A stretch of 58,998 bases of DNA from an uncultured Tepidisphaeraceae bacterium. GTDB taxonomy: Bacteria > Planctomycetota > Phycisphaerae > Tepidisphaerales > Tepidisphaeraceae. The notes under the pieces were generated by a model. The model did no database searches. It saw nothing but the letters and a program-made list of their open reading frames with translations, and was not told the DNA's origin. The DNA lies in NCBI GenBank assembly GCA_964446155.1, contig CAYUNS010000001.1, forward strand, positions 1-58,998, in the 5' to 3' direction. This document shows, one piece after another, positions 13,119 to 40,662 of the stretch (its first letter is position 1; every line of letters begins with the position of its first letter). The translations under genes and the position numbers were made by a program.

Positions 13119-13243
13119 CGGCATGCATGGTCGGCCGATCGCTCCAAGGGGCTTCCGGGACCAGCGCAAGCCATGCGCGCCAGGCATGAAAACACGAGTG
13201 CGTTGGATGTGCCGGGAAGTTTTCCGACATGTGCCGGAGGCAT

Positions 13244-14407
13244 ATGCAGCCCCATCGTCGCGTCATTCTGCTGATCGAGGCCACCTCGGCCTACGGCCGC
13301 GGATGCCTGCGCGGCATCGCCCGCTATGCCCGCGCGCGTGGTGGATGGATCTTCTTCCACCGTCTGCGCTATCCATTCGAGTTGTTGAAATTCAATGAGC
13401 TGCGGAATTGGAACGCGGATGGCATCATCGCGCGCATCGATAATCCGTCGGTCGCGCGGATCGTGCGGCGGCTTGCCTTGCCGGCGGTTGATCTCAGCGG
13501 ATCGTCGGTGATTGAAGGCGTGGCCGGCGTGTTTCCCGATCACCGGAAGATCATCACACTGGCGGCCGAACACCTGGTTTCCAATGGCTTGCGCAACCTG
13601 GCGTTCTGCGGTTATCCCGGCGTCTATTTTTCGGATTTCCGCCAAGGCGTGTTTGACAGCGAAGTGCAGGCTCAACACGGCGTCAAGTGCGTTTTTGAGC
13701 CTCCCCCAATCACCGATGCGATCTCGTATGAGCAGCGCGGCGTTCTTGACGCCGAGGCGCTCCAGGCATGGGTCGGGCAATTGCCCAAACCCATTGGAGT
13801 CATCGCGTGCAGCGACACGCGCGGCCGGCAAGTCCTGGAAGCCTGCGATGCGGTGGGCATCAAGGTTCCCCACGAAGTTTCAGTCATCGGGGTGGATGAC
13901 GATGATGTCGTTTGCGAATTGTCCAACCCGAGACTCAGCAGCGTGGTGCCGAATGTGGAAACCACCGGCTACGAGGCGGCACGACTGCTCGATCGTCTTT
14001 TTGGCGGCGAACCCTGTCCCGATGAACCTCTGCTCATTCCGCCCATCGCCATCGAAGGCCGCACCTCGAGCGACATGACCGCATTGAGCGATCCGGCGCT
14101 GGCCGCCGCGGTGCAGTTCATCCGCAACCGGGTGGGGGAGGGAATTAACGTCGAGGATGTCCTCGCGAAGGTGGAAATCTCCCGCTCGACATTGGAGCGG
14201 CAATTCTACGAGCACCTGGGTTGCACGCCTCACGAATTCATCCTGCGCTGCCGGATCGAGCGGGCCAAGCAGTTGCTCCTGGACACGGACTATCCTCTGG
14301 CGCGGATCGCGCGGATGGCGGGTTTCCGTCGTGTCGGCCACATGATCACCGTTTTTCGCGAGCGCTCCGGGCAAACGCCCGCCAAATATCGCCGCGCGAC
14401 GAACTGA
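13244..14407 (+). CDS. XylR-like transcriptional regulator (periplasmic-binding-protein-like sugar sensor domain + AraC-type HTH)
   Basis: ORF 13229..14407. N-terminal PBP-like domain (RVILLIEATSAYGRGCLRGIARYA, IGVIACSDTRGRQVLEAC, VSVIGVDDDD). C-terminal AraC HTH (ISRSTLERQFYEHLGCTPHEFILRCRIERAKQLL...IARMAGF). Confidence 0.8.
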   Translation: MQPHRRVILLIEATSAYGRGCLRGIARYARARGGWIFFHRLRYPFELLKFNELRNWNADGIIARIDNPSVARIVRRLALPAVDLSGSSVIEGVAGVFPDHRKIITLAAEHLVSNGLRNLAFCGYPGVYFSDFRQGVFDSEVQAQHGVKCVFEPPPITDAISYEQRGVLDAEALQAWVGQLPKPIGVIACSDTRGRQVLEACDAVGIKVPHEVSVIGVDDDDVVCELSNPRLSSVVPNVETTGYEAARLLDRLFGGEPCPDEPLLIPPIAIEGRTSSDMTALSDPALAAAVQFIRNRVGEGINVEDVLAKVEISRSTLERQFYEHLGCTPHEFILRCRIERAKQLLLDTDYPLARIARMAGFRRVGHMITVFRERSGQTPAKYRRATN

Positions 14408-20013: not shown

Positions 20014-21117
20014 CTAAACGGGCGTTTTGCCGCCGCAGGATTGCCGGATAATCAGCTTCGCGTGCAGGAGGATCTGCCGGCCGGGGAGATGTGGCTCGGC
20101 GAGGCGCTCGATCATCGCCCGTGTGGCGGCCTTGCCGATGTCCTGACAGGGGAGGCGCATCGTGGTGAGCGGCGCGGGGAGGAGCGTGGCATAGTCCACA
20201 TCGTCGAATCCAGCCACCCGAAGATCGTCAGGCACTTTTACGTCCTGATCGGACAGGGTGCGGATCAACATGGCGGCGGTGAGATCGTTGGAGCAAATGA
20301 CCGCATCGGCATGATGCGGGCCTGCGAGGAGTTGCCCGGCGAATCCCGGGTCGGCGGGGTCGCCCACCAGGACGCGGATCTGATCCGAATGTCCGGGGGT
20401 GGGGGCGCGGCGCAAGGCCTCGCGGCAGCCTGCAAGGCGCTGATCGGTCGTGGATGGATATTGTGGTCGGGTGACGAACGCGAGCCGGCGGCAGCCGATG
20501 TGCAGCAGGTGGCGGGCGAGGACGAACCCGGCCGAAAAATTGTCCACGCCGATCAAGTCGAGGTCGCTGCGATAAGGAAATGATTCCAAATCGCGATCCA
20601 GCAGCACCACGGTGATGCCGGCCTCGGTCAGCCGGGCGACAAGCCGCTGGTTGACCGTTTCGCGATCCTCGGGCAATTCAAGGGGAGCGAAGAAGACGCC
20701 GGCGACTTTTCGCTCGATGTATTGTTCACAAATCGCCTCGGCATCGGCGGAGGAGGAACCGTCGGAAAAGGGGTTTCCCCAGAGCATGGCAAATCCATTT
20801 TGCTCGGCGACGCGCGAGATTTCCCGACAGACGGGATCGAGGATTTCAGTCTTTCCCAGCCCGGGAACGAGCAGCCCGAGGAGGCGGGTTGTGGTTGGAG
20901 GCGTCGCGCGGAGATAGGTTCCCGATCCCACCCGGCGCTCCAGCAGCCCCATTTTCTGAAGTTCCATCAGCGCACGCGCGACGGTAGGCCGCGACAGATT
21001 GAATCGACGGACCAATTGCATCTCGCTGGGCAGCCGTCCGGTGCGGGCATATTTCCCCGAACTGATTTCCCGATGAAGAAGATCAAACAATTCGCGATGC
21101 TTGGGGACGCGGCTCAT
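20014..21117 (-). CDS. GntR-family HTH regulator fused to a LacI/PBP1-type sugar-binding domain
   Basis: LPSEMQLVRRFNLSRPTVARALMELQKMGLLERRVGSGTYL (GntR winged helix), then LLGLLVPGLG, ITVVLLDRD, IGVDNF, DAVICSNDLTAAMLIRTL, VPDDLRVAGFDD. Confidence 0.8.
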   Translation of the reverse strand: MSRVPKHRELFDLLHREISSGKYARTGRLPSEMQLVRRFNLSRPTVARALMELQKMGLLERRVGSGTYLRATPPTTTRLLGLLVPGLGKTEILDPVCREISRVAEQNGFAMLWGNPFSDGSSSADAEAICEQYIERKVAGVFFAPLELPEDRETVNQRLVARLTEAGITVVLLDRDLESFPYRSDLDLIGVDNFSAGFVLARHLLHIGCRRLAFVTRPQYPSTTDQRLAGCREALRRAPTPGHSDQIRVLVGDPADPGFAGQLLAGPHHADAVICSNDLTAAMLIRTLSDQDVKVPDDLRVAGFDDVDYATLLPAPLTTMRLPCQDIGKAATRAMIERLAEPHLPGRQILLHAKLIIRQSCGGKTPV

Positions 21118-21137
21118 TGATTCACCTTTGTTTCTTA

Positions 21138-21148
21138 ATATGTCATAT
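21138..21148. promoter_or_regulatory. 11-bp perfect palindrome ATATGTCATAT in the AT-rich divergent promoter region (candidate operator)
   Basis: It lies 20 bp upstream of the regulator start (21117) and about 90-110 bp upstream of the kinase-HAD gene. It sits in the only AT-rich stretch locally. Function is inferred from position only. Confidence 0.25.
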
Positions 21149-21239
21149 CAACTTTTATGCCTGTTTTGAAGATTCCACTTGCCAATAGTTGAAGTGAGGC
21201 CATTATCGTCATGGATGAATGGGCGACAAGCGGTAAGGG

Positions 21240-23159
21240 GTGTTTTGGAAATCTGTAATGACTGATTTAAGCAATCCGACTTGGCTGGAAGACTGTTTGG
21301 AGCAATTGCCGCAAGGGCGGGTGGGGGTGTTTGGGGATTTCGGCCTCGACGCCTACTGGGAAATCGATGAAGGCCGGGAGGAACGCTCGCTGGAAACGGG
21401 GCTTCCGATTCGTCATGTTCGTCGGCAACGATACGACCTGGGCGGGGCGGGGAATGTGGCGGCGAATCTCATGAGCCTGGGGGTGGGGCGCGTCGATGCG
21501 GTGGGCGTCGTTGGGATGGACCCGTTCGGCGATCGGATGTGCCGTCTGCTGGCCGATCGGGGAATCGACACCACCGGCATCGTCCGTTGCAGGGAGGGTT
21601 TTCAGACCATCGTGTATGGCAAACCCATCACCGCGGCCGGGGAAATCAATCGATTCGATTTCGGCACATGCAACGAACTGGCCGCGAGCACGCTCGAACG
21701 CGCGATGAATGAACTGGATCGCATCGCGGGCGCCTGTGATGTCGTGATCCTGAATCAACAGGTCGAGAGTGGCGTGAACACGCCGGAGGCGATTGACCGG
21801 ATCAACGCGATCATCGGCGACCATCCGGCCACGCGGTTCATCGTGGATGCGCGCGACAAGGGGGATCGATATCATGGGTGCATCCTCAAGCTCAATCTCC
21901 AGGAGGCGGTGCGATTCCTCTCGAACGGCGGTGATGAGCGCTGTGGGCAGGACGCGAAAACGATCGCCCGGCGTCTTCATGAAAAGACCGGTCGTCCGGT
22001 TTTCGTCACGCGCGCCGAAGCGGGGATTCTCGTGGCGGATGCGGATCGCGTGCATGAGGTTCCCGGCATTCAGATCATCGATCGGATCGATCCCGTGGGC
22101 GCGGGGGATACGGTCGTCGCGGCATTGGCGGGAGGCATGGCGATCGGGCGGGATCCGGTGACGTGCGCGCAACTGGCCAACCTGGCCGCGTCCATCACCA
22201 TTCGGAAGCTGCGAATGACGGGCACGGCCACGCCGGCGGAGATGCGCGCCGTCGGGGCGATGCCGGACTACATTTACGAACCCGATCTTGCGGCCGATCC
22301 GCGACACGCGAAGATGATCGAGGGAACGGAGTTCGAGATCATCCACGAGCTTCCGCAAACGCTCGGCATCCGTCATGCGATCTTCGACCACGACGGCACA
22401 CTGTCAACGCTGCGCGAAGGATGGGAGAAGATCATGGAGCCGATGATGGTGCGCGCCATTCTCGGCGAGCGGATCGGGGAGGTGTCGAAAGAGACATTTG
22501 ACCGGATCACGGCGATCGCTCGGCGGTTCATCGACCGGACGACGGGGATTCAGACGCTGGTGCAGATGCAGGGGCTTGTGAAGATCGTTCACGAATGCGG
22601 TTACGTTCCGGCGGATCGGATCCTGGACGAAGCGGGGTACAAGCGGGTCTACAACGAGCAATTGTTGGAGATGGTGCGATGGCGGATTCGCAAGCTTGAG
22701 CGCGGGGAGTTGGAGAGCGGTGATTTCCAGATCAGAAATGCGGCCGCCATGCTCAAGGCGTTGCATGCGCGCGGCGTGAAGCTCTATCTTGCCAGCGGAA
22801 CCGATGAGCAGGATGTGGTGGCGGAAGCCCGGGCAATGGGGTATGCCGATCTGTTCGAAGGCCGGATCTTCGGGGCGGTCGGTGATGTCAACGTCGAGGC
22901 GAAGAAAGTCGTGCTCGAGCGGATTATCCGTGAGAATGGATTAAGCGGGCATGAGTTCGTCACGTTCGGCGATGGGCCGGTGGAAATGCGCGAGACGCGC
23001 AAGCGGGGCGGGATATGCGTCGGTCTGTGCAGCGATGAGGTGCGGCGATTCGGCATGAATCCAGCCAAGCGTGGCCGGTTGATTCGCGGCGGCGCGGGAC
23101 TGTTGATTCCCGATTTCAGCCAGCTTCCGCAACTCATGCGGTTGCTTCAGTTGGCTTGA
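21240..23159 (+). CDS. fusion protein: RfaE/HldE domain-I-like PfkB sugar kinase (heptose-7-phosphate kinase-like) + C-terminal HAD-superfamily hydrolase
   Basis: The N-terminal ~330 aa match E. coli HldE domain I by eye (VGVFGDFGLDAYW, LGGAGNVAANLMSLG, DPVGAGDTVVAAL). The C-terminal ~300 aa carry HAD motifs FDHDGTLS (I), LASGT (II) and FGDGPVE (IV). The start is GTG 21240 or ATG 21258. Confidence 0.75.
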   Translation: MFWKSVMTDLSNPTWLEDCLEQLPQGRVGVFGDFGLDAYWEIDEGREERSLETGLPIRHVRRQRYDLGGAGNVAANLMSLGVGRVDAVGVVGMDPFGDRMCRLLADRGIDTTGIVRCREGFQTIVYGKPITAAGEINRFDFGTCNELAASTLERAMNELDRIAGACDVVILNQQVESGVNTPEAIDRINAIIGDHPATRFIVDARDKGDRYHGCILKLNLQEAVRFLSNGGDERCGQDAKTIARRLHEKTGRPVFVTRAEAGILVADADRVHEVPGIQIIDRIDPVGAGDTVVAALAGGMAIGRDPVTCAQLANLAASITIRKLRMTGTATPAEMRAVGAMPDYIYEPDLAADPRHAKMIEGTEFEIIHELPQTLGIRHAIFDHDGTLSTLREGWEKIMEPMMVRAILGERIGEVSKETFDRITAIARRFIDRTTGIQTLVQMQGLVKIVHECGYVPADRILDEAGYKRVYNEQLLEMVRWRIRKLERGELESGDFQIRNAAAMLKALHARGVKLYLASGTDEQDVVAEARAMGYADLFEGRIFGAVGDVNVEAKKVVLERIIRENGLSGHEFVTFGDGPVEMRETRKRGGICVGLCSDEVRRFGMNPAKRGRLIRGGAGLLIPDFSQLPQLMRLLQLA

Positions 23160-23194
23160 GGGAACAATGAATTCAATCGGAGGCAGGGCATCAC

Positions 23195-23689
23195 ATGGCC
23201 ATTGAACATCCTGGAATATTGTCGGTCGAGCAAATGCGTCGAGAGCGGGACCGGCTTGTCGGGGAGGGGAAAAAGCTCGTGTTCACCAACGGTTGCTTCG
23301 ACATCGTGCATCGCGGTCATGTCACGTACCTGACCTTCGCGCGAAACCAGGGCGATGCGCTGGTGGTCGGCGTGAACAGCGACGCATCGGTCAGGACGAA
23401 CAAGGGGGACAAGCGGCCGATCAATTCGCAGGAGGATCGGGCTTATGTTCTGGCGAGCTTGCGTCCGGTCGATTACGTCGTCATCTTTGATCAGAAGGAG
23501 CCGAAGGATCTGATCGCCCGGATTCTTCCCCAGGTGCTGGTCAAGGGAAGGGACTGGGCGCATTATGTCAGCGGTCGCGAGGTGGTCGAGGCCAATGGTG
23601 GGACGGTGGTGCTGGCGGACATGGTGGAAGGGCGGTCCACCACGAATATGATTGATCGAATCGTCGAGGTTTATGGAAAAGGTGGTTGA
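23195..23689 (+). CDS. hldC: D-beta-D-heptose 1-phosphate adenylyltransferase (stand-alone RfaE/HldE domain II)
   Basis: FTNGCFDIVHRGHVTYL, VGVNSDASVRTNKGDKRPIN, VLVKGRDW and GRSTTNMIDRI align closely with E. coli HldE domain II (GCFDILHAGHVSYL ... VNSDAS ... LVKGGDY ... CSTTNII). Confidence 0.85.
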   Translation: MAIEHPGILSVEQMRRERDRLVGEGKKLVFTNGCFDIVHRGHVTYLTFARNQGDALVVGVNSDASVRTNKGDKRPINSQEDRAYVLASLRPVDYVVIFDQKEPKDLIARILPQVLVKGRDWAHYVSGREVVEANGGTVVLADMVEGRSTTNMIDRIVEVYGKGG

Positions 23690-23694
23690 ACCGG

Positions 23695-24660
23695 ATGGGC
23701 AAGCGAATTGTGGTCACGGGCGCGGCGGGGTTCATCGGCCGGAATGTCGTCGCGGAGCTGAACGCGCGCGGGCGGGATGATTTGATCCTCGTCGATCGCC
23801 TCGGCACGGAAAACAAATGGAAGCAGCTCCTGGGACTTGGCTTCGAGGACCTGATCGATCCCGACGAATACCTCGAGCGGGTGCTTGATCGCAAGGCGCC
23901 GGCCGTCGATGCGGTCATCCACCTGGGCGCGTGCAGCGCGACGACGGAGCGCGATGTCGATTTCCTCCTGCGCAACAACTACCGCTACACGCGCGCGCTC
24001 TGCGAGCATTGCCTCGAGACCGGCGCGCGCTTCGTCTATGCCTCCAGCGCGGCGACTTATGGAGACGGAGCGCAGGGCTACAGCGACGACGACATGCTGA
24101 CGCCGAAGCTGCGCCCGTTGAATCCGTATGGCTATTCCAAGCATATTTTCGACTTGTGGGCGTTGAGGCACGGGCTGTTCGATCGGATCGTGGGGCTGAA
24201 ATATTTCAACGTTTTCGGCCCGTATGAAGACCACAAGGGCGACATGCGATCGGTGGTGCAGAAATCGTTTCACCAGATTCGTGAGACGGGAAAGGTGTCG
24301 TTGTTCAGGAGCCACCGGGCGGACTATGGCGATGGAGAGCAGAAGCGGGACTTCATTTACGTCAGGGACGCGGTGGACGTGACGCTGCATTTCATCGAGC
24401 ATCGCGATCGGGGCGGACTGCTTAATTGCGGAACGGGGCAGGCGCGGACCTGGAAGGACCTGGCGCTGGCGGTGTTCGCGGCGATGGGGCGAGAGCCGAG
24501 GATCGAGTTCATCGACATGCCCGAGGCGCTGCGCGGGAAATACCAGTATTTCACGCAGGCGGATGTCGCCAAGCTTCGCAAGGCAGGCTATACAAGACCC
24601 TTCACGACCCTCGAGGAATCGGTCAGGGACTATGTGCATCGCCACCTCGCCCATGAATGA
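23695..24660 (+). CDS. hldD: ADP-L-glycero-D-manno-heptose 6-epimerase
   Basis: ORF 23686..24660 with ATG at 23695. IVVTGAAGFIG, HLGACSATTE, FVYASSAATYG, LNPYGYSK, YFNVFGPYEDHKGDMRSV, KRDFIYVRD and YQYFTQADVAKLRKAGY match E. coli HldD/RfaD throughout. Confidence 0.9.
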   Translation: MGKRIVVTGAAGFIGRNVVAELNARGRDDLILVDRLGTENKWKQLLGLGFEDLIDPDEYLERVLDRKAPAVDAVIHLGACSATTERDVDFLLRNNYRYTRALCEHCLETGARFVYASSAATYGDGAQGYSDDDMLTPKLRPLNPYGYSKHIFDLWALRHGLFDRIVGLKYFNVFGPYEDHKGDMRSVVQKSFHQIRETGKVSLFRSHRADYGDGEQKRDFIYVRDAVDVTLHFIEHRDRGGLLNCGTGQARTWKDLALAVFAAMGREPRIEFIDMPEALRGKYQYFTQADVAKLRKAGYTRPFTTLEESVRDYVHRHLAHE

Positions 24661-27600
24661 TCGCTCACCTCTCCCGCATCGGGGAGAGCCACCGCGGCCG
24701 ATGGGGTTGTCGTTTCCGGCACGGCTCGAAGGCCGCTTTTTCGTGGCCAGCCCATCAAACCATCACAAACAACGGAGTCATCGTGGAAAGAGAAGCGCCC
24801 GTTTATGATCCGAATCTCACCCATTTGCGGGCCGCGCGGTTGCTGGAGGAGGTGATTCGCCCCTCCGTTTACAGCGACCGCCGCCCGCTGGAAGTCGCGG
24901 TGTTTCAGTGCTCCGATCCGATTTCTTATGACGAGGCGATCGGCCGGGAATACAAGCCCGTCGATCTGGGGTTTTGCTGGGGGCCGGTCTGGTCCACCGC
25001 CTGGTTCCGGCTGCGGGGCCGCGTGCCGGTGGAATTCGGCGAGGAATTCCGCCTGCTCTTCGACACGCGCACGGAGGCCCTGTGCTGGTGGGACGGCGCG
25101 CCGTACCAGGGCGTCGAGTTGCATCGCCAGGATGTGAAGCTGCCGTCCGTCGTGCGCGCCGGGGACACGATCGAAGTGTTCATTGAAGCGGCGTGCAATC
25201 ATATGCTGGGCGTCGGTCGGGAATACGGCGATTTCGCCCGCATGGGCGAGTTGTCCTCGACGCAATCCGGCACGCTGACGCTCGCGCATGTGGCTCGTCA
25301 TCATCCCGCGCGAGCGGCGCTGCTGGTGGAATTCGAGTTGCTTCTGGATCTTGCCAGGGACCTGCCGCCCGATTCGCCGCGGGCGCGTCATGTGAACGAG
25401 GCGCTCCGCGACGCGGTGGCGTCGCTGAGGTTCGACCGGATCGATGAAACATTGCCGGCCGTGCGGGCGCGAATCGCCGAGGCGCTGACCACGCCGAATG
25501 CCGGCGATGCGACGGATGCGTACTGCATCGGCAATGCGCATATCGACCTGGCGTGGCTCTGGCCGATCCGGGAGACGAAGCGCAAGGCGTCGCGGACCTT
25601 TTCCACGGTGCTGCGCTACATGGAACGCCATCCCGAGTATTGCTTCCTGCAAAGCCAGGCGCAGTTGTATGAATGGGTGCGGGAGAAGTATCCGGCGTTG
25701 TTCGAGCAGATCAGGGAACGCGTGCGGGAAGGGCGCTGGGAGGCCGGTGGATCAACCTGGGTCGAGCCGGACTGCAACATTCCGTCCGGGGAATCGCTCG
25801 TTCGCCAACTGCTGCTGGGCGCGCGCTATTTTCAGGAGCATTTCGGCGTCAGGCAGAGCTACCTGTGGCAGCCGGACGTGTTTGGATATTCCGCGGCGTT
25901 GCCGCAGATTCTGAAGCTCGCGGAGCTGGATGTCTTCTTTTCGCAGAAGATCAGTTGGAATCAGTACAACAAATTTCCCCATCATTCCTTTCGATGGGCC
26001 GGCATCGACGGGACGGAAGTGGTCAGTCACTTTTTCCCGGCCGACACCTATATCGGGACGAACCTTCCGACGGAGCTGCGACACGGGCAGAAAAACTACC
26101 AGCAGTCGGCCCGCGCGCCGCTCTGGTTGCAGGCGTATGGCTGGGGCGATGGAGGCGGCGGACCGACCGAGGCGATGATCGAGCGCGTCGCCCTTCAGAG
26201 GGACTGCGCCGGTGTCCCGCGAGCACGGCACGGGCGGGCCGATCAGTTCGCGCGCAAACTGCTGGAACATGCCGATGCGCTGCCCAGGTGGGTGGGGGAA
26301 CTCTATCTCGAGCTGCATCGCGGAACCTATACGACGCACGCGCTTGTGAAGAAGCGCAATCGGCTCGGTGAACGCGCGCTCCAGGACCTGGAGATCGTTC
26401 AAAGCCTCTCGATCGTGAACGGCGGGACGAGAGCGGATGAACAAAGGAAGGAAACCGATCGCCTTTGGAAGCTGCTTCTGCTCAACCAGTTTCATGACAT
26501 TCTTCCCGGTTCGTCGATCGGCTGGGTCTACAAGGACGCGCATGAGGACTACGGGCAGGTGCTCGGCGGCGCGCGCAAAATGCTGGAGGAAACGCTGGGC
26601 GCGGGAGCGCCGGACGCCGGCGGGGAGTTGATCGTGCTCAACACTTCCGGGCGGGCACGCGGCGAAACGATCACCCTGCCCTCCGGCGTCAACCCCCGTG
26701 CGTTGCGGGTCTCCGACTCGGAGTCGATCCCGACGCAGGAGGTGACGACGCTCACCGGCGGGCGGGAGCGGATCGCGTTTCTTCCCGCGTTGCCGCCTTT
26801 GGCGACGATCGTCGTCCGCGCCGCCGATGAACAGCCCGGCGAGGCTTCGACACTGGCCGTCGGTGATCTCTGGATCGAGAACGAGCATCTGCGCGCCGAG
26901 CTTGATCCATCCGGCCGGGTGGTGTCGCTGTTCGACAAGCGCACCGGACGTGAGGCGATTCAACCGGGTCGACCGGCGAATCAGTTCGTCCTGTACGAGG
27001 ATTATCCATCCAATCACGATGCGTGGGATGTCGATCTGGGCTATCGCGACAAGCCTGAATCCGTGGACTCGCCGGCGGAGCATCGCATCGTCGAACGCGG
27101 GCCGGTTCGCGCGGCGATCGAGTTCGCCCGCGATTTGGGTCGCGGGAGCAGGCTTGTTCAACATGTTCGGTTGTGCGGCGCCGGCCGGTTCATCGAGTTC
27201 GTGACGCGCGTGACATGGAAGGAATCCCATCGGTTCCTGCGCGTGCTGCATCCGGTGGATGTGCATGGCGATCATGCGACTTATGAGATTCAGTTCGGTC
27301 ATTTGCGCCGGCCGAATCATTTCAATACGTCCTGGGATTACGGGCGATTCGAAGTGCCCGCGCAGCGCTGGATGGACTACAGCGAAACGGATTTCGGCGT
27401 GACGATGATCAACGACTGCAAGTACGGGCACTCCTGTCTCGGCGACGTGATGGGTCTGTCGCTGCTGCGATCGACGAAATCGCCCGATCCCGACGCCGAC
27501 ATGGGCGAGCATGAGTTCCGCTATGCGCTGATGCCGCATGCGGCGTTCGATCCTTCGGAGGCGATCGCGGCGGCGGAGTCGTTCAACCAGCCGCCGGTGG

Positions 27601-27911
27601 TCGTGCCCGCGGCGGGGAAACGCTCGTGGGAGGCGTCGGTTCCCTTCGCCGAGCTTCCTTCCCAATCCGGCGTCGTCATCGACACGATCAAGCCCGCGGA
27701 AGACGGGGACGGGCTGATTCTTCGCATCTACGAATCGCGCGGTGGGCGAACTTCGTTCACGATGAAGCTCCATCCCTCGATCGTCTCGATCGAGCAGGTG
27801 AACCTGCTGGAGCGGCAGGCGCGGAGCGTCGCGTTCGACGCCCGATCGCATTCGCTGGAACTGTCGCTGCGCGCGTTTGAAATCCGCACGCTGCGCCTGC
27901 GGTTGAAGTGA
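24657..27911 (+). CDS. glycoside hydrolase family 38 alpha-mannosidase (no signal peptide, cytoplasmic type)
   Basis: CIGNAHIDLAWLWPIRETKRKASRTF, GGSTWVEPDCNIPSGESLVRQ, YLWQPDVFGYS, LNQFHDILPGSSI. ATG 24657 overlaps the hldD stop (ATGA), but its first 42 codons look non-protein-like. GTG 24783 (GGAG 5 nt upstream) is an equally likely start. Confidence 0.85.
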   Translation: MIAHLSRIGESHRGRWGCRFRHGSKAAFSWPAHQTITNNGVIVEREAPVYDPNLTHLRAARLLEEVIRPSVYSDRRPLEVAVFQCSDPISYDEAIGREYKPVDLGFCWGPVWSTAWFRLRGRVPVEFGEEFRLLFDTRTEALCWWDGAPYQGVELHRQDVKLPSVVRAGDTIEVFIEAACNHMLGVGREYGDFARMGELSSTQSGTLTLAHVARHHPARAALLVEFELLLDLARDLPPDSPRARHVNEALRDAVASLRFDRIDETLPAVRARIAEALTTPNAGDATDAYCIGNAHIDLAWLWPIRETKRKASRTFSTVLRYMERHPEYCFLQSQAQLYEWVREKYPALFEQIRERVREGRWEAGGSTWVEPDCNIPSGESLVRQLLLGARYFQEHFGVRQSYLWQPDVFGYSAALPQILKLAELDVFFSQKISWNQYNKFPHHSFRWAGIDGTEVVSHFFPADTYIGTNLPTELRHGQKNYQQSARAPLWLQAYGWGDGGGGPTEAMIERVALQRDCAGVPRARHGRADQFARKLLEHADALPRWVGELYLELHRGTYTTHALVKKRNRLGERALQDLEIVQSLSIVNGGTRADEQRKETDRLWKLLLLNQFHDILPGSSIGWVYKDAHEDYGQVLGGARKMLEETLGAGAPDAGGELIVLNTSGRARGETITLPSGVNPRALRVSDSESIPTQEVTTLTGGRERIAFLPALPPLATIVVRAADEQPGEASTLAVGDLWIENEHLRAELDPSGRVVSLFDKRTGREAIQPGRPANQFVLYEDYPSNHDAWDVDLGYRDKPESVDSPAEHRIVERGPVRAAIEFARDLGRGSRLVQHVRLCGAGRFIEFVTRVTWKESHRFLRVLHPVDVHGDHATYEIQFGHLRRPNHFNTSWDYGRFEVPAQRWMDYSETDFGVTMINDCKYGHSCLGDVMGLSLLRSTKSPDPDADMGEHEFRYALMPHAAFDPSEAIAAAESFNQPPVVVPAAGKRSWEASVPFAELPSQSGVVIDTIKPAEDGDGLILRIYESRGGRTSFTMKLHPSIVSIEQVNLLERQARSVAFDARSHSLELSLRAFEIRTLRLRLK

Positions 27912-27959: not shown

Positions 27960-29264
27960 TCATTCGGCCGGCGCCGTCGTCGCGGGGGCGTCGGAGTGGG
28001 AGACAGTGACGGGGTCGCCGTTGGCGAGGCGCTCGTTGCCGGTGACGATCACTTCCCGCGCGTCGAGTCCGTTGATAATGGCGACGTGGCCGTCGCGTCG
28101 AACACCCTGGCGGATGAGGTGCTCACGGGCTTTGCCGTCCTCGACGCTGAAGACGCGATCGGTTCCCGCGAAGCTGACGATCGCCCCGCTCGGGACGAAC
28201 GGAACTTGCGGATCCTCGCCATGGACAACCCCGCCGCGCGCGAAAGCGCCCGGGCGGAGGAGGCGTTGCGGGTTGGGGACGATCGCCTCGATTTCAAAGG
28301 TGCGGCTCGCCGGATCAATGGCCGGATTGATGCGGCTGATCGTGCCGTTGAAGGCCTGCGGGTATCCCTCGACGCGAATGTGCGCGGTCTGCCCGGTGGC
28401 GAGGGAAGCGATGAACCGTTCGGGGACGGCGGCGCGGAACTTGATGGGATCGTCGGCGACGACGTTCATCATCGGGGCGCCTTCGCTGACATATTCACCG
28501 ACGGAGACCCGCCGCTGGGTGATCGCGAGCGGCTTGAGGGAGGAGGTCGTCGCCTGCGTGGCCGGCGGGTTGGTGGCGATCGAGTAATAGCTGGGGGCGC
28601 GGATGATGGTGTCGGCCAGGCGCTGTTGGGCGGCATCCAACTCGGATTGCCGGGTGCGGACGAGGGCGAGTTGGGACTGCGCCTCGAGTTGTGCGACGTC
28701 GTAGTCGCGCTTGGCGACTTCAAAGGCGGTTTCGAGATCGGCGTAATCCTGCTCACTGATGAGCGGCGGATCCTGGGTGAACAATTGCCTGGCGCGCTCG
28801 AAGCGGGCGCCGGCATTGGCGGCCTGGAACTTGGCGCGCTCGACGGTGGCGATGGCGAGAAGGTCGAAATCGTCGGGAGGAGGCTGGGACAAGCCGAGCG
28901 CCGCGAGCGCTTCCCGCGTGGCCATGGTGCGTTGATCGACGGCGAGCTGGTAATCGGTGGGATCGATTTCGACGAGGGGTTGCCCGGGATCGACGCGATC
29001 GCCCACATCGACGAGGACCCGCATGATTCGGCCGGGGACTTTGGCGCTGAGGGTCGCCTCCTCATCGCCGTGAAGGGAGCCGACGACCTCGACGATGCGT
29101 TCGACGGATTCGGTCCGCACGGCGGTGAGAGTGACGGGGACAGGCTCACGGGAGGGAGGTTGCCCGCCGCCGCCGATGGCTTTGTCTTCATCGCAGCCGG
29201 CGAGGGAGATCGCGGCGGCGAGGAAGGCGGCGAGAGTGATCCGGTGGGCGATCGAATGGGGCAT
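27960..29264 (-). CDS. efflux RND transporter periplasmic adaptor (membrane fusion protein), lipoprotein
   Basis: Lipobox AISLAGC. Motifs LSAKVPGRIMRVLVDVGDRVDPGQPLVEIDPTDYQLAV, a coiled-coil hairpin region, and VFSVEDGKAREHLI. Confidence 0.85.
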   Translation of the reverse strand: MPHSIAHRITLAAFLAAAISLAGCDEDKAIGGGGQPPSREPVPVTLTAVRTESVERIVEVVGSLHGDEEATLSAKVPGRIMRVLVDVGDRVDPGQPLVEIDPTDYQLAVDQRTMATREALAALGLSQPPPDDFDLLAIATVERAKFQAANAGARFERARQLFTQDPPLISEQDYADLETAFEVAKRDYDVAQLEAQSQLALVRTRQSELDAAQQRLADTIIRAPSYYSIATNPPATQATTSSLKPLAITQRRVSVGEYVSEGAPMMNVVADDPIKFRAAVPERFIASLATGQTAHIRVEGYPQAFNGTISRINPAIDPASRTFEIEAIVPNPQRLLRPGAFARGGVVHGEDPQVPFVPSGAIVSFAGTDRVFSVEDGKAREHLIRQGVRRDGHVAIINGLDAREVIVTGNERLANGDPVTVSHSDAPATTAPAE

Positions 29265-29399
29265 GAACGTCTCCGCGAATGGTTTGACCGGACGCCGGAC
29301 GGACTTACAATGCGTCCTTCAATACTGACGGGTCGGTTTTTGCGAACTCCGCCCCGATGGTAAATCCCTTTTGTCCCCAGGGCAAGCGAAAGACCGGGC

Positions 29400-29975
29400 A
29401 TGCAGCGTCCTGATGAAGCAAAACGACTGGCGATCATGGCGTCCGCGGCGGCGTTGTTCGCGACCCGTCCGTTTCACGAGGTGCGGCTGGACGACATCGC
29501 CGAGGCCGCGAGCGTCGGCAAGGGGACGCTGTATATCTATTTCAAGAGCAAGGACGAGTTGTACGGCCGGCTGGTGCTTGAAGGATTGACACAGGTGGTG
29601 AATCGCCTGAAAAAGTGGGTGGAGGCGGATTCGATGGATGCGTGGGAGACGCTGACGGCGATCGTGCGGGAACTGGTCTGTTGGGCGAAGCGATCGCCGC
29701 ATTTTTTCCAGCTTACCCGCCCCGGTGAGCCGCACACCCCCATCGCGGGGCTGCGCGAGAAGCGGCAGGAGCTGGCGAAGCTGATCGAAAAGACGATCGT
29801 GCGCGGTGTGCGCGCGGGGGTCATGGTCGATCCGAGACCGGACCTCACCGCGCAGTTTCTGCCCTCCTGCATCCGGGGCGCGCTGCGGTTCGCCCCGACG
29901 GATGTCGGGCAGGAAGCATTGACGAATCACATCCTCCGGATTTTTTCCGGTGGAATCCTGAGGAAGGACGCATGA
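29400..29975 (+). CDS. TetR/AcrR family transcriptional regulator
   Basis: AAALFATRPFHEVRLDDIAEAASVGKGTLYIYFKSKDELY is a TetR N-terminal HTH. Its stop overlaps the next start (ATGA at 29972). Confidence 0.85.
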   Translation: MQRPDEAKRLAIMASAAALFATRPFHEVRLDDIAEAASVGKGTLYIYFKSKDELYGRLVLEGLTQVVNRLKKWVEADSMDAWETLTAIVRELVCWAKRSPHFFQLTRPGEPHTPIAGLREKRQELAKLIEKTIVRGVRAGVMVDPRPDLTAQFLPSCIRGALRFAPTDVGQEALTNHILRIFSGGILRKDA

Positions 29976-31432
29976 GGCAATACAGGCGATGGACATCCTT
30001 CGCGGTGGTGACGCTGCTGTCGCTGCTGCCGGCGGGCGGATGCCGGGTGAATCATGACGAGGAGCGCGGGATTTATCGCGAGATCCTCGATCTGCCCGCT
30101 CATCGGCACGAGTCGGAGCAGTCGCTGTCGCTGCGGGATGCGTTGCTGCTGGCGAATCGCAACAACGAGGAATTGTCGATGCGGGGGGAGCAATATTTCC
30201 GCTCGTGGATCGCGCGCAGGCGGACGGTCGCCAATTTTCTGCCGACGGTGAACCTCGTCGCGTCGGCGGTGGAGCGGGATCGCGTCTCCTCGTCGAACGG
30301 GGACGGGGGATCATCCAATGACAGCACGTTCGACGTGTCGGGGCAACTCAACTGGAACCTGTTCAACGGCTTTCGGGACGTGAACCGCTATTGGCGGGAC
30401 ACTTATCTCATCGAGCAGAGCCGAAACGAATTGCTGTCCTTCCAGGAATCGCTGCTGCTGGACGTGGCGGCGACCTATTATCAGATTCTGCGGTCGGAAG
30501 CGTCGGTGCATGTGCTGGAGAACTCGCTGGCGGTGCAGGAGGAGCGGCTGCGCGACACGCAGGGCCGGTTGGACGCGGGGGTGGCGCGGCCGCTGGATCT
30601 GGCGCAGACCCAGGCGCAGGTGTCGGCGACGCGGACGATTCTGATCAACGCCCGTCGGGATGTGTCCAACGCGCGGGATGTCCTGGAGTTGCTGATCGCC
30701 TTCCCGGTGCATCAAGCGAGCCTGGTCGATGAATTTGAATTGCCCGCGCGGATTGGGGAGCTGGATGCGTATCTTGAGGCGGCGATGAATGCCCGGCACG
30801 ACCTGCAAGCGGGGGAGATGGCGATCCTTGCCGCGAGGCGGGAGGTGGAGGTCGCGATCGGGCAGTATTACCCGACGGTGGCGTTGAATCTCGAGGCGTT
30901 CGTGTATCGGGAGACGGTCCCGGATGAGCGGGACTGGACGGGGTTGCTGGTGGCGAACGTGCCGATCTTCGCGGCGGGGCGGATTCGCGCGGATGTGCGC
31001 GAGGCATGGAGCTTTTTTCGCGAGGCGCTGCTGGTGCGGTCGATCCTGTACCGGCAGGTGAGGCAGCAGGTGCGGCAGGCATACCATGACCTGGCGGCGA
31101 GCGAATCGCGGCTGTCGGAGTTGCAGGTGCAGCTTCGGGCCGCGGAGCAGGCGTCACGGCAGGCGGAGGCGTCTTACCGGGTCGGGCTGGCGACGAACCT
31201 GGAGCGGGTCGCGGCGCAGGATGCGCTGTTGTCGGCGCAGCTTCAACTCGCCAGCGAGGAATTTGACCGAAAGGTGCTGTATCTCATCCTGCTGAGGTCG
31301 TCGGGGCTGCTGCGGGAGGATCTGGAGGGGAAGAAGACCGAAGGGGTGTATCCGTCGATGGACGAAGGCTCGCCTTCGGATGGATCGATGCGGCTCAAGC
31401 CGGTGACGCAGCCGGCGGTGGAGCGGGAGTGA
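29972..31432 (+). CDS. TolC/NodT-family outer-membrane efflux protein (probable lipoprotein)
   Basis: Signal/lipobox LLPAGGC. There are two repeats of the outer-membrane efflux protein pattern (LSLRDALLLANRNNEEL..., LDLAQTQAQVSATR..., LEAAMNARHDLQAGE..., LERVAAQDALLSAQLQL). Confidence 0.8.
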   Translation: MRQYRRWTSFAVVTLLSLLPAGGCRVNHDEERGIYREILDLPAHRHESEQSLSLRDALLLANRNNEELSMRGEQYFRSWIARRRTVANFLPTVNLVASAVERDRVSSSNGDGGSSNDSTFDVSGQLNWNLFNGFRDVNRYWRDTYLIEQSRNELLSFQESLLLDVAATYYQILRSEASVHVLENSLAVQEERLRDTQGRLDAGVARPLDLAQTQAQVSATRTILINARRDVSNARDVLELLIAFPVHQASLVDEFELPARIGELDAYLEAAMNARHDLQAGEMAILAARREVEVAIGQYYPTVALNLEAFVYRETVPDERDWTGLLVANVPIFAAGRIRADVREAWSFFREALLVRSILYRQVRQQVRQAYHDLAASESRLSELQVQLRAAEQASRQAEASYRVGLATNLERVAAQDALLSAQLQLASEEFDRKVLYLILLRSSGLLREDLEGKKTEGVYPSMDEGSPSDGSMRLKPVTQPAVERE

Positions 31433-31499
31433 ATCGGGGTGCAACATCGAACCGCCTGACGGATAACATTATTTGTCCCGCGCGTTCTCCAGGAGACGC

Positions 31500-34400
31500 A
31501 TGCAGAAGTTCATCAACACATTCATCACCCGGCCGGTCTTTGCGAGCATGATCATTCTCGGGCTGGTCGTCGTGGGATCGGCGGCGTATACCGGCCTGGG
31601 CGTGGACCGCTTCCCCTCGGTCGATCTGCCGACGATCTCGGTACGCACCAGCCTGCCGGGCGCATCTCCGGAGGAGGTGGAATCCGAGTTGATCGAGCCG
31701 ATCGAGGAGGTCGTCAACACGGTTGCGGGGATCGACGAGCTGCGCGCGATCGCGGGCAACGGCACCGCGGTCATCATCGCGACGTTCGATCTCAATCGCG
31801 ACATCGAGATCGCCGCGCAGGATGTGCGGGACAAGGTTTCGACCGTCATCCGCCGGTTGCCTGATGACGCGGACGTGCCCACCGTCAGCAAGTTCGACAA
31901 CGACTCGAGGCCGGTGATCACGTTCGCGCTCTCGGGCGATCGCTCGCTGCGCGAGCTGTCGGAGATCGCGGACAAGATCGTGAAGGTGCAGCTCGAGCGC
32001 GCCGCGGGCGTGGGCGAGGTGGACATCAACGGCGAGGCCGAGCGGACGATCAACATCGACGTGGACGCCGACCGCCTGGCGGCGTATGGGCTGCCGATCA
32101 CGGCGGTGCGCGACGCGGTCGAGCGGCAGAACACGGAGATTCCCGGGGGGAACATCACCGGGGCGTCGCGCGAGCAGACGCTTCGGACGCTGGGCCGGCT
32201 GACGTCGGCCGAGCAGTTCGCGGACATCGTGATCAGCTACGTCAACGGCGCTCCGATCCGGCTGCGCGACGTGGCGAGGGTCGAGGACGGAGTGGCGGAG
32301 CGTCGCTCCATCTCGCGGTTGAACGGCCGGACGGCGGTCTCGCTCAACGTCCGCAGGCAAAGCGGCGCGAACACGATCGAGGTGATCGAATCGGTCAAGG
32401 AGAACGCCGCACTGGCCAGGGCGCAACTGCCTTCGGGCGTCGAGCTGGAGATCATCCAGGACCAGTCCAATTACATTTACACGGCGCTGCACGAGATCAA
32501 CCTGCACCTGGTGCTGGGATCGATCCTCGCCTGCACGGTGGTGTTCGCGTTCACGCGAAGCTGGCGGAGCACGGTCATCGCGGGGGTGGCGATCCCGGCG
32601 TCGGTGATCAGCACCTTCGCGATGATGTGGGTACTCGATTTCACGCTGAACAGCGTGACCATGCTGGCGCTGGTGCTGATGGTGGGGGTGGTGATCGACG
32701 ACGCGATCGTGGTGCTCGAGAACATCTTCCGGTTCGTCGAGGAAAAGAAGATGCCTCCGATGGAGGCCGCGAGGCAGGGGGCGGCGGAGATCGCGCTGGC
32801 GGTGCTGGCGACGACGCTGTCACTGGCGGTGATTTTCGTGCCGGTGTCGTTCATGAGTTCGATCAGCGGGCGGTTCCTGTACCAGTTCGGGATCACGGCG
32901 GCGGTGGCGGTGATGGTCAGCCTGCTGGTGAGCTTCGTTCTCACACCGACGCTCTCGGCGAGGATGCTGGGCGCCGAAGCCGTGAAGGCGGCCCAGGCGC
33001 ATCAGGGCGCGGGCAGTCGCGGGGGATTTTATTATTACATCGACCTCGTTTACACGGCGTTGCTCAAGCTGGTGATGCGGTTCCGCTGGATCACCGCCGG
33101 GGTGGCGCTGCTGGTCATGCTCAGCGCGATTCCGCTGTTCTCGCTCGTGCAGCAGGGATATTTGCCGCAAGGCGCGGACGAGGCGGAGTTTCGCGTCGAT
33201 ATCGAAGGCCCGCAGGGGATGAGCTTCGGCGCGATCGACGAGGCGATGCGCTCCATCGAGGCGGACCTGATGGAGATTCCGGAGGTGCGTCTGATTCTCG
33301 CCGAGGCCGGCGGGGGCTGGATCGGCGGGGTGAACAGGGGGGATGTCCACGTCGCCATCGCGCCGCACTCGGAGCGCTACTGGACATTCACGCGCATCAT
33401 CAAGGGGATCGCAAGCGGCGATCCGCTGGCGGCGTTCCGGGGGAACTACACGCAGAACGAGGTGATGGACAAGGTCCGCCGGGAGATCGGCGCGAAATAT
33501 GCGCGGCAAGGGTTGAGCGTGCGGGTGCGCGAGTACGGGGGCTTCAACATTGGCGGGGGGAACTTCGACATCGACTTCTCCATTTCCGGGCCGAGCCTTG
33601 AAAAGCTGTCGGAGTATTCGCGGGCGCTCGCGGCGCGCGCCGAGGCGATCGGGGGCATCATCAACATCAACACGACGCTCGAGCTGGAGAAGCCCGAACT
33701 GCGGGTGAGCATCGATCGCGAGCGCGCCGCCGACCTGGGCATCAGCAGTCGGGACATCGGCACGGCGCTGCGGCTGATGGTCGGCGGGGACCAGGAGATC
33801 AGCCGGTTCCGCGATCCGGCGACGAATGAGAATTACGACGTGCGATTGCGTCTTCAGGAGACGTATCGCAACAATCCCGACAACATTCCCAATCTGCTGC
33901 TGACCGGGGAAAGCGGGAGGCTGATCGAGTTGACGAACTTCGCGTCGATTGAACAGGCGGTCAGCGCGGCGAGGATCGACCGCCTCGATCGCGGCCGGGA
34001 CGCGCGCGTCCGCGCCACGGTCGCGACGGGCTTCGCGATGGCGGAGCGAACCCAGGCGCTGCTGGAGGAAGCGAACCGGATGGGGATGGATCCGGGCTAC
34101 ACCGTGAGCGTGCGCGGCAAGGGGCGCGAGTTCGAGCGCACGTTCAACGAGTTCATCTTCGCGTTCGCGCTGTCGGTCGTCTTCATGTACATGATTCTCG
34201 CCAGCCAGTACGAGCATCTCGTGCATCCGGTGACGATCCTGATCTCGCTGCCGCTGGCGGTGCCGTTCGCGCTGTTGTCGCTGCTGATGTTCGGGGAGCA
34301 GCTCAACCTCTATTCGGCGCTGGGGATCCTGGTGTTGTTCGGCGTGGTGAAGAAGAACTCGATTTTACAGATCGATCACATGAATCACCTGCGGCGGGAC

Positions 34401-34727
34401 TATGGGCTGCCCCGCTACGAGGCGGTGATCCAGGGGAACCGCGATCGCCTGCGTCCGATCCTGATGACGACGTTGTCGCTGGTCGCGGGGATGCTGCCCT
34501 TGTGGCTGGGGACCGGTCCGGGGGCGGAAGAGCGCCGCGCGGTGGCGGTGGTGGTCATCGGGGGGCAGTCCATGTCGTTGATGCTGACGCTGCTGGTGAC
34601 ACCGGTGATGTACACGCTGCTGGACGACCTGGGGCTGTTCATCCGCCACCGACGGCTGCGCGGAGAAGCGCCGGCGCCACCATCGGCGCCGGCGCACGAG
34701 CATGAACTGGAAGCGGTGGGGAAGTGA
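31500..34727 (+). CDS. RND efflux pump, AcrB/AcrD/AcrF (HAE1-like) inner-membrane subunit
   Basis: ORF 31473..34727, ATG 31500 with AGGAG upstream. MQKFINTFITRPVFASMIILGLVVVG, VGVVIDDAIVVLENIF, about 12 TM segments and two large periplasmic loops. Confidence 0.9.
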   Translation: MQKFINTFITRPVFASMIILGLVVVGSAAYTGLGVDRFPSVDLPTISVRTSLPGASPEEVESELIEPIEEVVNTVAGIDELRAIAGNGTAVIIATFDLNRDIEIAAQDVRDKVSTVIRRLPDDADVPTVSKFDNDSRPVITFALSGDRSLRELSEIADKIVKVQLERAAGVGEVDINGEAERTINIDVDADRLAAYGLPITAVRDAVERQNTEIPGGNITGASREQTLRTLGRLTSAEQFADIVISYVNGAPIRLRDVARVEDGVAERRSISRLNGRTAVSLNVRRQSGANTIEVIESVKENAALARAQLPSGVELEIIQDQSNYIYTALHEINLHLVLGSILACTVVFAFTRSWRSTVIAGVAIPASVISTFAMMWVLDFTLNSVTMLALVLMVGVVIDDAIVVLENIFRFVEEKKMPPMEAARQGAAEIALAVLATTLSLAVIFVPVSFMSSISGRFLYQFGITAAVAVMVSLLVSFVLTPTLSARMLGAEAVKAAQAHQGAGSRGGFYYYIDLVYTALLKLVMRFRWITAGVALLVMLSAIPLFSLVQQGYLPQGADEAEFRVDIEGPQGMSFGAIDEAMRSIEADLMEIPEVRLILAEAGGGWIGGVNRGDVHVAIAPHSERYWTFTRIIKGIASGDPLAAFRGNYTQNEVMDKVRREIGAKYARQGLSVRVREYGGFNIGGGNFDIDFSISGPSLEKLSEYSRALAARAEAIGGIININTTLELEKPELRVSIDRERAADLGISSRDIGTALRLMVGGDQEISRFRDPATNENYDVRLRLQETYRNNPDNIPNLLLTGESGRLIELTNFASIEQAVSAARIDRLDRGRDARVRATVATGFAMAERTQALLEEANRMGMDPGYTVSVRGKGREFERTFNEFIFAFALSVVFMYMILASQYEHLVHPVTILISLPLAVPFALLSLLMFGEQLNLYSALGILVLFGVVKKNSILQIDHMNHLRRDYGLPRYEAVIQGNRDRLRPILMTTLSLVAGMLPLWLGTGPGAEERRAVAVVVIGGQSMSLMLTLLVTPVMYTLLDDLGLFIRHRRLRGEAPAPPSAPAHEHELEAVGK

Positions 34728-40579: not shown

Positions 40580-40662
40580 TATGCGGGCGGGAGGGGGATT
40601 GGCAATGACAGGAACATGAGCGGCAAGGCAAGCGGGGGCGGGCGAGGTGGGCACGAAAAGTG

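Follow-up and report, generated by a model that had tools for sequence, protein, structure and literature searches.

The kinase::HAD fusion described here, a protein in which a PfkB-fold kinase of the HldE/HldA type is joined to a phosphatase-type HAD domain, is encoded by the first gene of an operon in a 58,998-nucleotide stretch of DNA (contig CAYUNS010000001.1, assembly GCA_964446155.1; this whole stretch is termed the window) from an uncultured soil planctomycete of the family Tepidisphaeraceae, whose genome comprises 300 contigs and is 94% complete. Judged from its homologues, the fusion is a large uncharacterised family. It belongs to a family of cassettes that exists in two versions, either the fusion with a stand-alone heptose-1-phosphate nucleotidyltransferase (AT) and the epimerase HldD, as in the window, or the fusion with a protein of the GSU2086 family (NCBIfam NF052581; 370-400 amino acids (aa), deoxyhypusine-synthase fold). 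The alternation of AT, with or without HldD, with GSU2086 behind one and the same fusion, together with the near-exclusion of HldD and GSU2086 from each other's genomes, is new here, and GSU2086, a second unstudied enzyme family, seems from its distribution to replace the classical heptose epimerase.

In the proposed mechanism, the operon (21258-27911) would be governed by a divergent GntR/sugar-binding regulator. The substrate would come from an unlinked GmhA isomerase, an imported sugar being a further possible source, and would be phosphorylated on O1 by the HldE-I-type kinase domain to give heptose 1,7-bisphosphate, from which the fused C1-capped HAD-IA domain would remove the 7-phosphate, thereby doing the job of GmhB. 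The net result would be an ATP-driven shift of phosphate from C7 to C1 inside one polypeptide. The stand-alone HldC-type enzyme would then make the nucleotide sugar and HldD would epimerise C6. The analysis itself establishes domain identities, fold class, gene order, distribution and co-occurrence; from these we infer the substrates, the direction of flux, the regulation and the role of the GH38 glycosidase encoded at the end of the operon, and the physiological direction may be biosynthesis, salvage or catabolism.

The predicted chemistry and the order of its steps are those of the textbook ADP-heptose pathway, the kinase falls in the same PfkB subfamily, AT and HldD pass curated cut-offs and GT9 genes are present in the host. 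The bifunctional HldE architecture of that pathway (kinase then adenylyltransferase in one polypeptide) is, however, not the one at this locus, where the kinase is followed by a phosphatase-type C1-capped HAD-IA domain and AT is a separate gene; in addition, the window operon contains a GH38 gene and a sugar-binding regulator, and GmhA is unlinked. The split HldA/HldC system of Burkholderia and Neisseria likewise has a stand-alone nucleotidyltransferase, and the window kinase matches HldA over its full length, but HldA lacks a HAD domain at its C-terminus and GmhB in those organisms is a separate HAD-IIIA enzyme. We know of no linkage of the Burkholderia or Neisseria systems to a mannosidase or a regulator.

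The fusion, its operon and its family

Open reading frame calls together with Pfam and NCBIfam matches place five genes at 20014-27911, namely a divergent GntR/sugar-binding regulator and a tight plus-strand operon in the order kinase::HAD fusion, AT, HldD and GH38, and both the positions and the order agree with an earlier sequence-only reading of the window. The features of the locus, and one related gene outside it, are as follows.

20014-21117, minus strand: GntR-HTH (helix-turn-helix) / LacI-type sugar-binding (PBP1) regulator (PF00392 at residues 8-68; PF13377 at residues 201-361)
21141-21154, plus strand: operator-like motif TGTCATATCAACTT in the regulator-operon spacer, overlapping the palindrome ATATGTCATAT
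21240-22274, plus strand, likely start ATG 21258: kinase domain of the fusion, HldE-domain-I / HldA type, PfkB fold (TIGR02198, PF00294)
22275-23159, plus strand: conserved linker and C1-capped HAD-IA domain of the fusion, candidate heptose 1,7-bisphosphate 7-phosphatase (PF00702 at residues 377-581)
23195-23689, plus strand: stand-alone heptose-1-phosphate nucleotidyltransferase of the HldC / HldE-domain-II type, 164 aa (TIGR02199)
23695-24660, plus strand, frame open from TTG 23686: ADP-glycero-manno-heptose 6-epimerase HldD (TIGR02197)
24657-27911, plus strand: GH38 alpha-mannosidase-family glycosidase, 1084 aa, cytoplasmic, last gene of the operon (PF22907, PF01074, PF09261, PF07748, PF17677)
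39542-40672, minus strand: GmhB-like HAD-IIIA phosphatase outside the operon, the genome's candidate canonical GmhB (NF006506, TIGR00213, TIGR01656)

The gap between the fusion and AT is 36 bp, that between AT and hldD varies from -4 to +5 bp with the choice of hldD start, and hldD overlaps the GH38 gene by 4 bp; the ATGA at 24657 pointed out earlier as joining the hldD stop to the GH38 start is real. The fusion had been started at GTG 21240, and its true start is probably ATG 21258 (633 aa), as in the identical database protein P0002. The unit is bounded at 20014-27911 because the genes on either side are unrelated to it, with an AraC-type regulator upstream of the divergent regulator and, downstream of GH38, a convergent HlyD-type gene followed by a TetR/OEP/AcrB efflux operon (27960-34727 overall). 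Promoter and terminator scans were uninformative, with counts at or below shuffled expectation.

The fusion protein (633-639 aa, 21240-23159) consists of a kinase in its first 345 residues (PfkB at 55-324; PF00294, 104.7 bits) and a HAD domain in its last 260. The top NCBIfam match of the kinase is TIGR02198 rfaE_dom_I at 141 bits, far under the cut-off of 345. Residues 21-330 align full length with the heptose-7-phosphate kinase HldA (PDB 4e84, E 1e-19), the sole strong PDB relative of this domain, and 15 homologues all retain the residues of its GG, NxxE and GAGD motifs unchanged. The HAD domain contains the four HAD catalytic motifs (FDHDGT, ASGT, K555 and GDGPVE), which are invariant in 15-21 homologues. 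Compared with the PDB by sequence, it has marginal matches only (KdsC, E 1e-3; phosphoserine phosphatase, E 4e-3), and no GmhB, HAD-IIIA or curated HAD subfamily model matches it. An AlphaFold model of the domain (pLDDT 92.5, pTM 0.88) has a four-helix cap between motifs I and II (residues 51-142 of the model), and its fold neighbours are HAD-IA enzymes (Z 16-18), including YniC, phosphoglycolate phosphatases (PGP), beta-phosphoglucomutase (beta-PGM) and the phosphatase domain of MtlD. As modelled, the domain is a C1-capped HAD-IA rather than a cap-less HAD-IIIA of the GmhB kind, in line with its earlier description as a capped, non-GmhB hydrolase, and it may act like GmhB. Its fold and catalytic motifs are like those of YniC (1te2), beta-PGM (1lvh/2wf5) and Acinetobacter MtlD (7ocn), but identity to these proteins is just 12-21% and its cap is longer, with about 100 residues in four helices. 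The bifunctional MtlD, in which a HAD-IA phosphatase is joined to the enzyme acting one step earlier in its pathway, provides a precedent for such a fusion.

An alternative for this domain is that it acts as a beta-PGM-like heptose phosphomutase (1-phosphate to 7-phosphate and back), with the kinase only supplying the 1,7-bisphosphate activator. This would be consistent with the position of beta-PGM among the top structural matches (Z 16-17, TM up to 0.74 on the target) and with a DxD motif whose second Asp is common to mutases and phosphatases, and its reversibility would suit both the catabolic and the anabolic direction. However, the scores of beta-PGM are equalled or exceeded by those of plain sugar phosphatases (YniC, PGP and the phosphatase domain of MtlD), a full-size and fully conserved kinase seems excessive for making catalytic amounts of an activator, and the cassette replaces GmhB in a genome in which no GmhB-like gene was found (G006, see below). 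Moreover, P0269 (675 aa) joins RibBA to a more distantly related HAD domain of the subfamily, in a setting where a phosphatase is expected. This fusion hints at phosphatase chemistry because the otherwise missing step of the riboflavin pathway is carried out by a HAD phosphatase and not by a mutase. The phosphomutase is hence considered quite unlikely. In its own right, P0269 points to a sister clade of the HAD subfamily as the phosphatase of the riboflavin pathway.

Metagenomes contain more than 3000 homologues that span the whole fusion, of which the top 120 are 57-63% identical over 94-100% of the length, and relatives occur in at least 521 species genomes among the 600 matches listed, which is a measure of the spread of the PfkB-HAD architecture that the sequence-only reading had left to a survey. 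The best 80 of these genomes, whose fusions are 45-61% identical to that of the window across both domains and the linker, span Acidobacteriota, Planctomycetota, Verrucomicrobiota, Lentisphaerota, Kiritimatiellota, Bacteroidota (Prolixibacteraceae, Rikenellaceae), Armatimonadota and others. A search of 18 genomes of the host's own family did not find the fusion, and its distribution is therefore patchy. A profile of the HAD domain matched 481 clusters (50% identity) at E <= 1e-30, mostly fusions of 615-657 aa with some stand-alone proteins of 270-310 aa, and among these matches are two further natural fusions, kinase::HAD::GSU2086 (P0136, 1021 aa) and HAD::GmhA (P0246, 488 aa). The homologues are named in databases only as 'rfaE bifunctional protein kinase chain/domain', 'PfkB family carbohydrate kinase' or 'HAD family hydrolase', and literature searches retrieved no paper on the kinase::HAD fusion and no relevant work on heptose with GH38. 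A 2024 commentary on a survey of nucleoside diphosphate (NDP)-heptose enzymes describes only mono-, di- and tri-domain architectures for nucleotidyltransferase-bearing enzymes, with no kinase::HAD among them (PMC11573728).

Alternation with the GSU2086 family

The two versions of the cassette were delineated by clustering the open reading frames within 9 kb of the fusion in the best 80 loci. Directly after the fusion there is AT, usually with HldD, in 24 loci and a GSU2086-family gene in 38, never both; the rest have neither nearby. The locus of a Phycisphaeraceae genome (L072) has the layout of the window, with a divergent regulator followed by fusion, GSU2086 and GH38, so that GSU2086 takes the place of AT and HldD. 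The two types interleave in the tree of the fusions, with at least 12 changes between them, and differ even between the sister fusions of L042 (AT) and L044 (GSU2086), which are separated by branches of 0.13-0.14 and joined with 100% SH-aLRT. The GSU2086-type cassettes (GmhA-like gene, kinase::HAD and NF052581 gene, as in Geobacter sulfurreducens GSU2085-2087) contain the same kinase::HAD family at 47-61% identity and share the regulator family and the GH38/GH92/ROK/transporter neighbourhoods of the window, but the window has canonical AT and HldD without GSU2086, while the GSU2086-type version is often without any nucleotidyltransferase.

The same pattern is found at the level of genomes. Of 50 genomes with the fusion, 19 carry HldD alone, 24 GSU2086 alone, seven both and none neither, and all eight genomes in which the fusion has neither partner nearby carry GSU2086 elsewhere, without HldD. 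The exclusion extends to genomes sampled across the phylum (201 genomes, at least 90% complete), where the 180 with rfaE_dom_II divide into 39 with HldD only, 106 with GSU2086 only, five with both and 30 with neither (Fisher p 2e-15, uncorrected for kinship); among the 21 without rfaE_dom_II, none has HldD and two have GSU2086. Within the host's own family, HldD is present in 16 of 25 other genomes, and the two genomes with GSU2086 are both without HldD. An independent-pairs test on the fusion tree, underpowered with six pairs, gave about three opposite pairs and none in the same direction (p ~0.25).

GSU2086 also occurs beside classical heptose genes. In the planctomycete loci L112-L119, operons that are otherwise alike have HldD in some cases and GSU2086 in others immediately before hldE, and a genome without HldD (G015; L111, C310:1-9000) has the operon GSU2086-HldE-GmhA-GmhB-like beside a GT9 gene. 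Open frames of about 840 aa that resembled GSU2086::HldE and HldD::HldE fusions were rejected, as tblastn puts their parts in different frames and they are adjacent genes. In Geobacter sulfurreducens, transposon sequencing (Tn-seq) gave GSU2086 a fitness defect equal to that of its neighbours hldE and gmhA (PMC5585712). Both the exclusion with HldD and the swap with AT and HldD behind one fusion suggest that GSU2086 does the job of HldD on a heptose phosphate. Taken further, GSU2086 could be a nucleotide-independent heptose-phosphate C6 epimerase that replaces HldD or AT plus HldD and forms the majority type in Planctomycetota, while the cassettes would serve sugar-responsive salvage or turnover, some with GH38 or GH92 acting on alpha-heptosides; this is a tentative proposal, possible but short of probable.

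Heptose genes of the host and of sole-route genomes

The two genes that follow the fusion had been read as a stand-alone HldE-domain-II adenylyltransferase and HldD, and both pass curated cut-offs (AT: TIGR02199 rfaE_dom_II, 186.9 bits, cut-off 181.5; HldD: TIGR02197, 388.6 bits, cut-off 274.6, with GxxGxxG and YxxxK present). AT also carries MVEGRSTT, whose position 5 is Arg and which nearly matches the (F/L)XXGRSTT STTR5 motif, reported to mark heptose nucleotidyltransferases accepting CTP and UTP as well (PMC11573728), and given this near match the product of AT may not be ADP-heptose only. The HldD of the window groups with the stand-alone HldDs of its family relatives (68-75% identity) and with all cassette HldDs in a single clade (99% SH-aLRT), apart from the planctomycete HldDs that adjoin hldE. 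This tree is compatible with acquisition of the whole cassette as well as with insertion of the fusion and AT next to an hldD already in place.

Elsewhere in the host genome there is a classical HldE on contig C84 (L007:1465-2955; NF008454, 433 bits), and contig C30 encodes a reversed HldE (L008:940-2502; adenylyltransferase at residues 18-157, then kinase at 186-509), the third heptose-kinase paralogue of the genome. The genome's only GmhA, a GmhA-like isomerase unlinked to the operon, is on contig C158 (TIGR00441, 186 bits, under the 209.45 cut-off); the sequence-only reading was thus correct that the window holds no GmhA. Three matches to GT9 heptosyltransferases (PF01075) are on contigs C190, C59 and C7, and no GSU2086-family gene is present anywhere in the genome. 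The GmhB-like gene at 39542-40672, 16 kb from the operon, divergent from mutS (40660-43428) and overlooked in the sequence-only reading, passes the cut-off of TIGR01656 (101.3 bits against 84.15) and stays under those of NF006506 (117.9 against 178) and TIGR00213 (105 against 149.6); its 167-aa C-terminal extension (residues 210-376) has no Pfam match. The MutS protein encoded beside it is 75-80% identical to proteins labelled Tepidisphaeraceae, Phycisphaerales and Humisphaera, in agreement with the origin of the window. Because HldE, GmhA and this gene are all present, the fusion and AT are redundant for lipopolysaccharide (LPS) synthesis in the host. Hence the earlier proposal of an ADP-heptose-type locus in which a kinase-HAD protein replaces HldE stood as to the fusion but not as to the replacement in this genome, where the cassette is an accessory second route, probably induced by sugar, beside canonical HldE. 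The cassette HldD is, however, the sole HldD above cut-off in the genome, and the locus is therefore probably not independent of LPS synthesis.

Other genomes appear to depend on the cassette entirely. In the Acidobacteriaceae G006, G021 and G024, which have GT9 heptosyltransferases, no HldE-type kinase (E <= 1e-20), rfaE_dom_II or HldD was found outside the cassette, and for this reason the fusion must be the pathway kinase there. It is very probably also the pathway's phosphatase in these genomes, judging by their gene content, and in G006 there is no GmhB-like match at E <= 1e-10. Together with the HAD::GmhA fusion, these sole-route genomes lend support from comparative genomics to the sequence-only inference that the fusion combines a kinase with a phosphatase, an inference that also agrees with the HldA alignment, the predicted C1-capped HAD fold and the loci in which GmhA is linked to the fusion.

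Sugar genes around the fusion and the direction of the pathway

The most frequent partners in the 80 loci are GmhA-like genes (31), GH92 alpha-mannosidases (19), ROK sugar kinases (19), AGE-family epimerases (18), GH38 (17), SSF transporters (13), MFS transporters (11) and homologues of the regulator (at least 11), and the regulator, GH38, GH92, ROK kinase and sugar transporters recur beside the fusion in three phyla. This fits the earlier suggestion of a role beyond constitutive synthesis of the LPS core. Half of the 24 AT-type loci (12) have a GmhA-like gene after HldD in the operon, in the order fusion-AT-HldD-GmhA, and the in-locus GmhA-like proteins score 170-187 bits against the cut-off of 209. 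Acidobacterial operons have the order fusion-AT-HldD-(GmhA)-MFS/ROK-GH92. A genome of the same class as the host (G072, locus L109) mirrors the window with a divergent regulator followed by fusion, AT, HldD, a 375-aa protein and GH38.

The 375-aa protein between HldD and GH38 in that genome (L109:5731-6858, minus strand) has no Pfam match, and it was considered and rejected as a relative of GSU2086 or of URO-D/MtaA-like proteins, being related to neither; a BNR/sialidase-like protein with a LamG domain (L109:740-2563, minus strand) follows the GH38 gene. In a Phycisphaerae/Lentisphaerota clade with neither AT nor GSU2086 nearby, an MtaA/URO-D-like gene with a weak TIGR01463 match adjoins the fusion (L025:8931-9983, L032:3217-4263).

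The GH38 protein of the window has all four GH38 Pfam domains (PF01074, 283.6 bits; PF09261, 84.7; PF07748, 201.9; PF17677, 60.6) and an Ams1-like N-terminal domain, and no signal peptide is predicted at its N-terminus, as expected from its earlier description as a cytoplasmic enzyme. It is 54% identical to the GH38 of L072 and 37% to that of G072. The first ~60 residues of its longest open reading frame are unaligned in tblastn to these two closest GH38s compared, the match in L109 beginning at query residue 61 and that in L072 spanning about 1016 codons, and the true start may be internal to the frame.

The divergent regulator, predicted earlier to combine a GntR-type HTH with a sugar-binding domain, has both domains (PF00392, PF13377), and at least 11 related loci, some of the AT/HldD and some of the GSU2086 type, have a homologue with 46-54% identity beside the fusion. 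The spacer between regulator and operon is 140 bp long and A+T-rich (21118-21257). The pattern TGTMATWWCAACTT has a single match in the 59-kb window, at 21141-21154, against 0.01 expected by chance, and by eye similar motifs are found at the equivalent place in most of eight regulator-fusion spacers from four phyla. The motif TGTCATATCAACTT is hence regarded as a putative operator, which, like the regulator, appears to be conserved beside the fusion across phyla. Further upstream in the window are a beta-glycanase-like gene (10797-13118) and a XylR-type PBP/AraC regulator (13229-14407).

These neighbourhoods allow two readings in which the cassette is not a route of heptose biosynthesis. In the first, the substrate is another sugar, such as mannose 6-phosphate derived from alpha-mannosides, which would be converted to an NDP-hexose or other product, and the heptose annotations would be mere family resemblance. 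In favour of this, the genes around the fusion are typical of mannose utilisation, both the kinase and the GmhA-like proteins of the loci fall short of their heptose cut-offs, and the chemistry of GmhA (ketose to manno-aldose) would formally be that of a mannose-6-phosphate isomerase. However, HldD and AT pass heptose-specific equivalog cut-offs, a C6 epimerisation is meaningless for a hexose, the score of the host's one GmhA is comparable to those of the in-locus proteins, yet HldE and GT9 genes are present in that genome, and in some GT9-bearing genomes the cassette is the sole heptose route. Another sugar is therefore very unlikely.

The second is a salvage or catabolic, Leloir-like route for a manno-configured sugar taken up from outside, the likeliest being heptose derived from the LPS core or another glycan. 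GH38 or GH92 would free the sugar, a transporter and the ROK kinase would give heptose 7-phosphate, the fusion and AT would convert this to the ADP-sugar, HldD would interconvert the L,D and D,D forms, and GmhA would link the D,D form to sedoheptulose 7-phosphate. Nucleotide activation would then be only a handle for epimerisation, and therefore a single enzyme of the GSU2086 family could replace AT and HldD. Such a route would account for the GH92, ROK, AGE, GH38, SSF and MFS genes and the sugar-binding regulator around the fusion and for the strict alternative of AT plus HldD or GSU2086 after it, including the difference between the sister fusions of L042 and L044, and some GSU2086-type genomes are without a heptose nucleotidyltransferase, which argues against synthesis of a glycosyl donor in them. 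On the other hand, a kinase and a phosphatase together make the flow from 7-phosphate to 1-phosphate irreversible, towards activation and not towards sedoheptulose 7-phosphate, and the locus encodes no enzyme that would convert ADP-D,D-heptose back to heptose 7-phosphate. For the GT9 heptosyltransferases of several genomes, furthermore, the cassette is the sole route to ADP-heptose, the fitness defect that the Geobacter GSU2086 mutant shares with hldE and gmhA (PMC5585712) fits biosynthesis, and no heptosidase is described in the literature searched. Salvage is accordingly a minority possibility and rather doubtful.

Several points weigh against a biosynthetic kinase-phosphatase as well. The host already has HldE, GmhA and a GmhB-like gene. 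The kinase is so far under its cut-off (141 bits against 345) that its sugar could differ, and the HAD-IA fold is common to phosphatases and beta-PGM, which a fold search cannot separate. GSU2086-type loci in genomes without a heptose nucleotidyltransferase, such as the complete genome G013, are unexplained, and biosynthesis alone also leaves the recurrent linkage to GH38, GH92, ROK kinase, AGE epimerase and MFS/SSF transporters without explanation. A Leloir-like salvage route explains this linkage and the replacement of AT and HldD, but it is without a return step and conflicts with the irreversible kinase-phosphatase pair, and for this reason the biosynthetic mechanism is held, on balance, to be the probable one for the fusion.

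Heptose nucleotides are precursors of the LPS core, antibiotic targets and agonists of innate immunity. If the proposed mechanism is true, the kinase::HAD fusion is a fourth, unstudied way of carrying out steps 2 and 3 of their synthesis, in which an unrelated HAD subfamily replaces GmhB. The alternation of AT plus HldD with GSU2086, and the near-exclusive pattern of HldD and GSU2086 among genomes, would then give a testable function to a family of unknown function. Finally, the linkage of the fusion to mannosidases, ROK kinases, transporters and a sugar sensor, which is not part of the textbook pathway, would suggest that environmental degraders of glycans couple heptose metabolism to the uptake of sugars.

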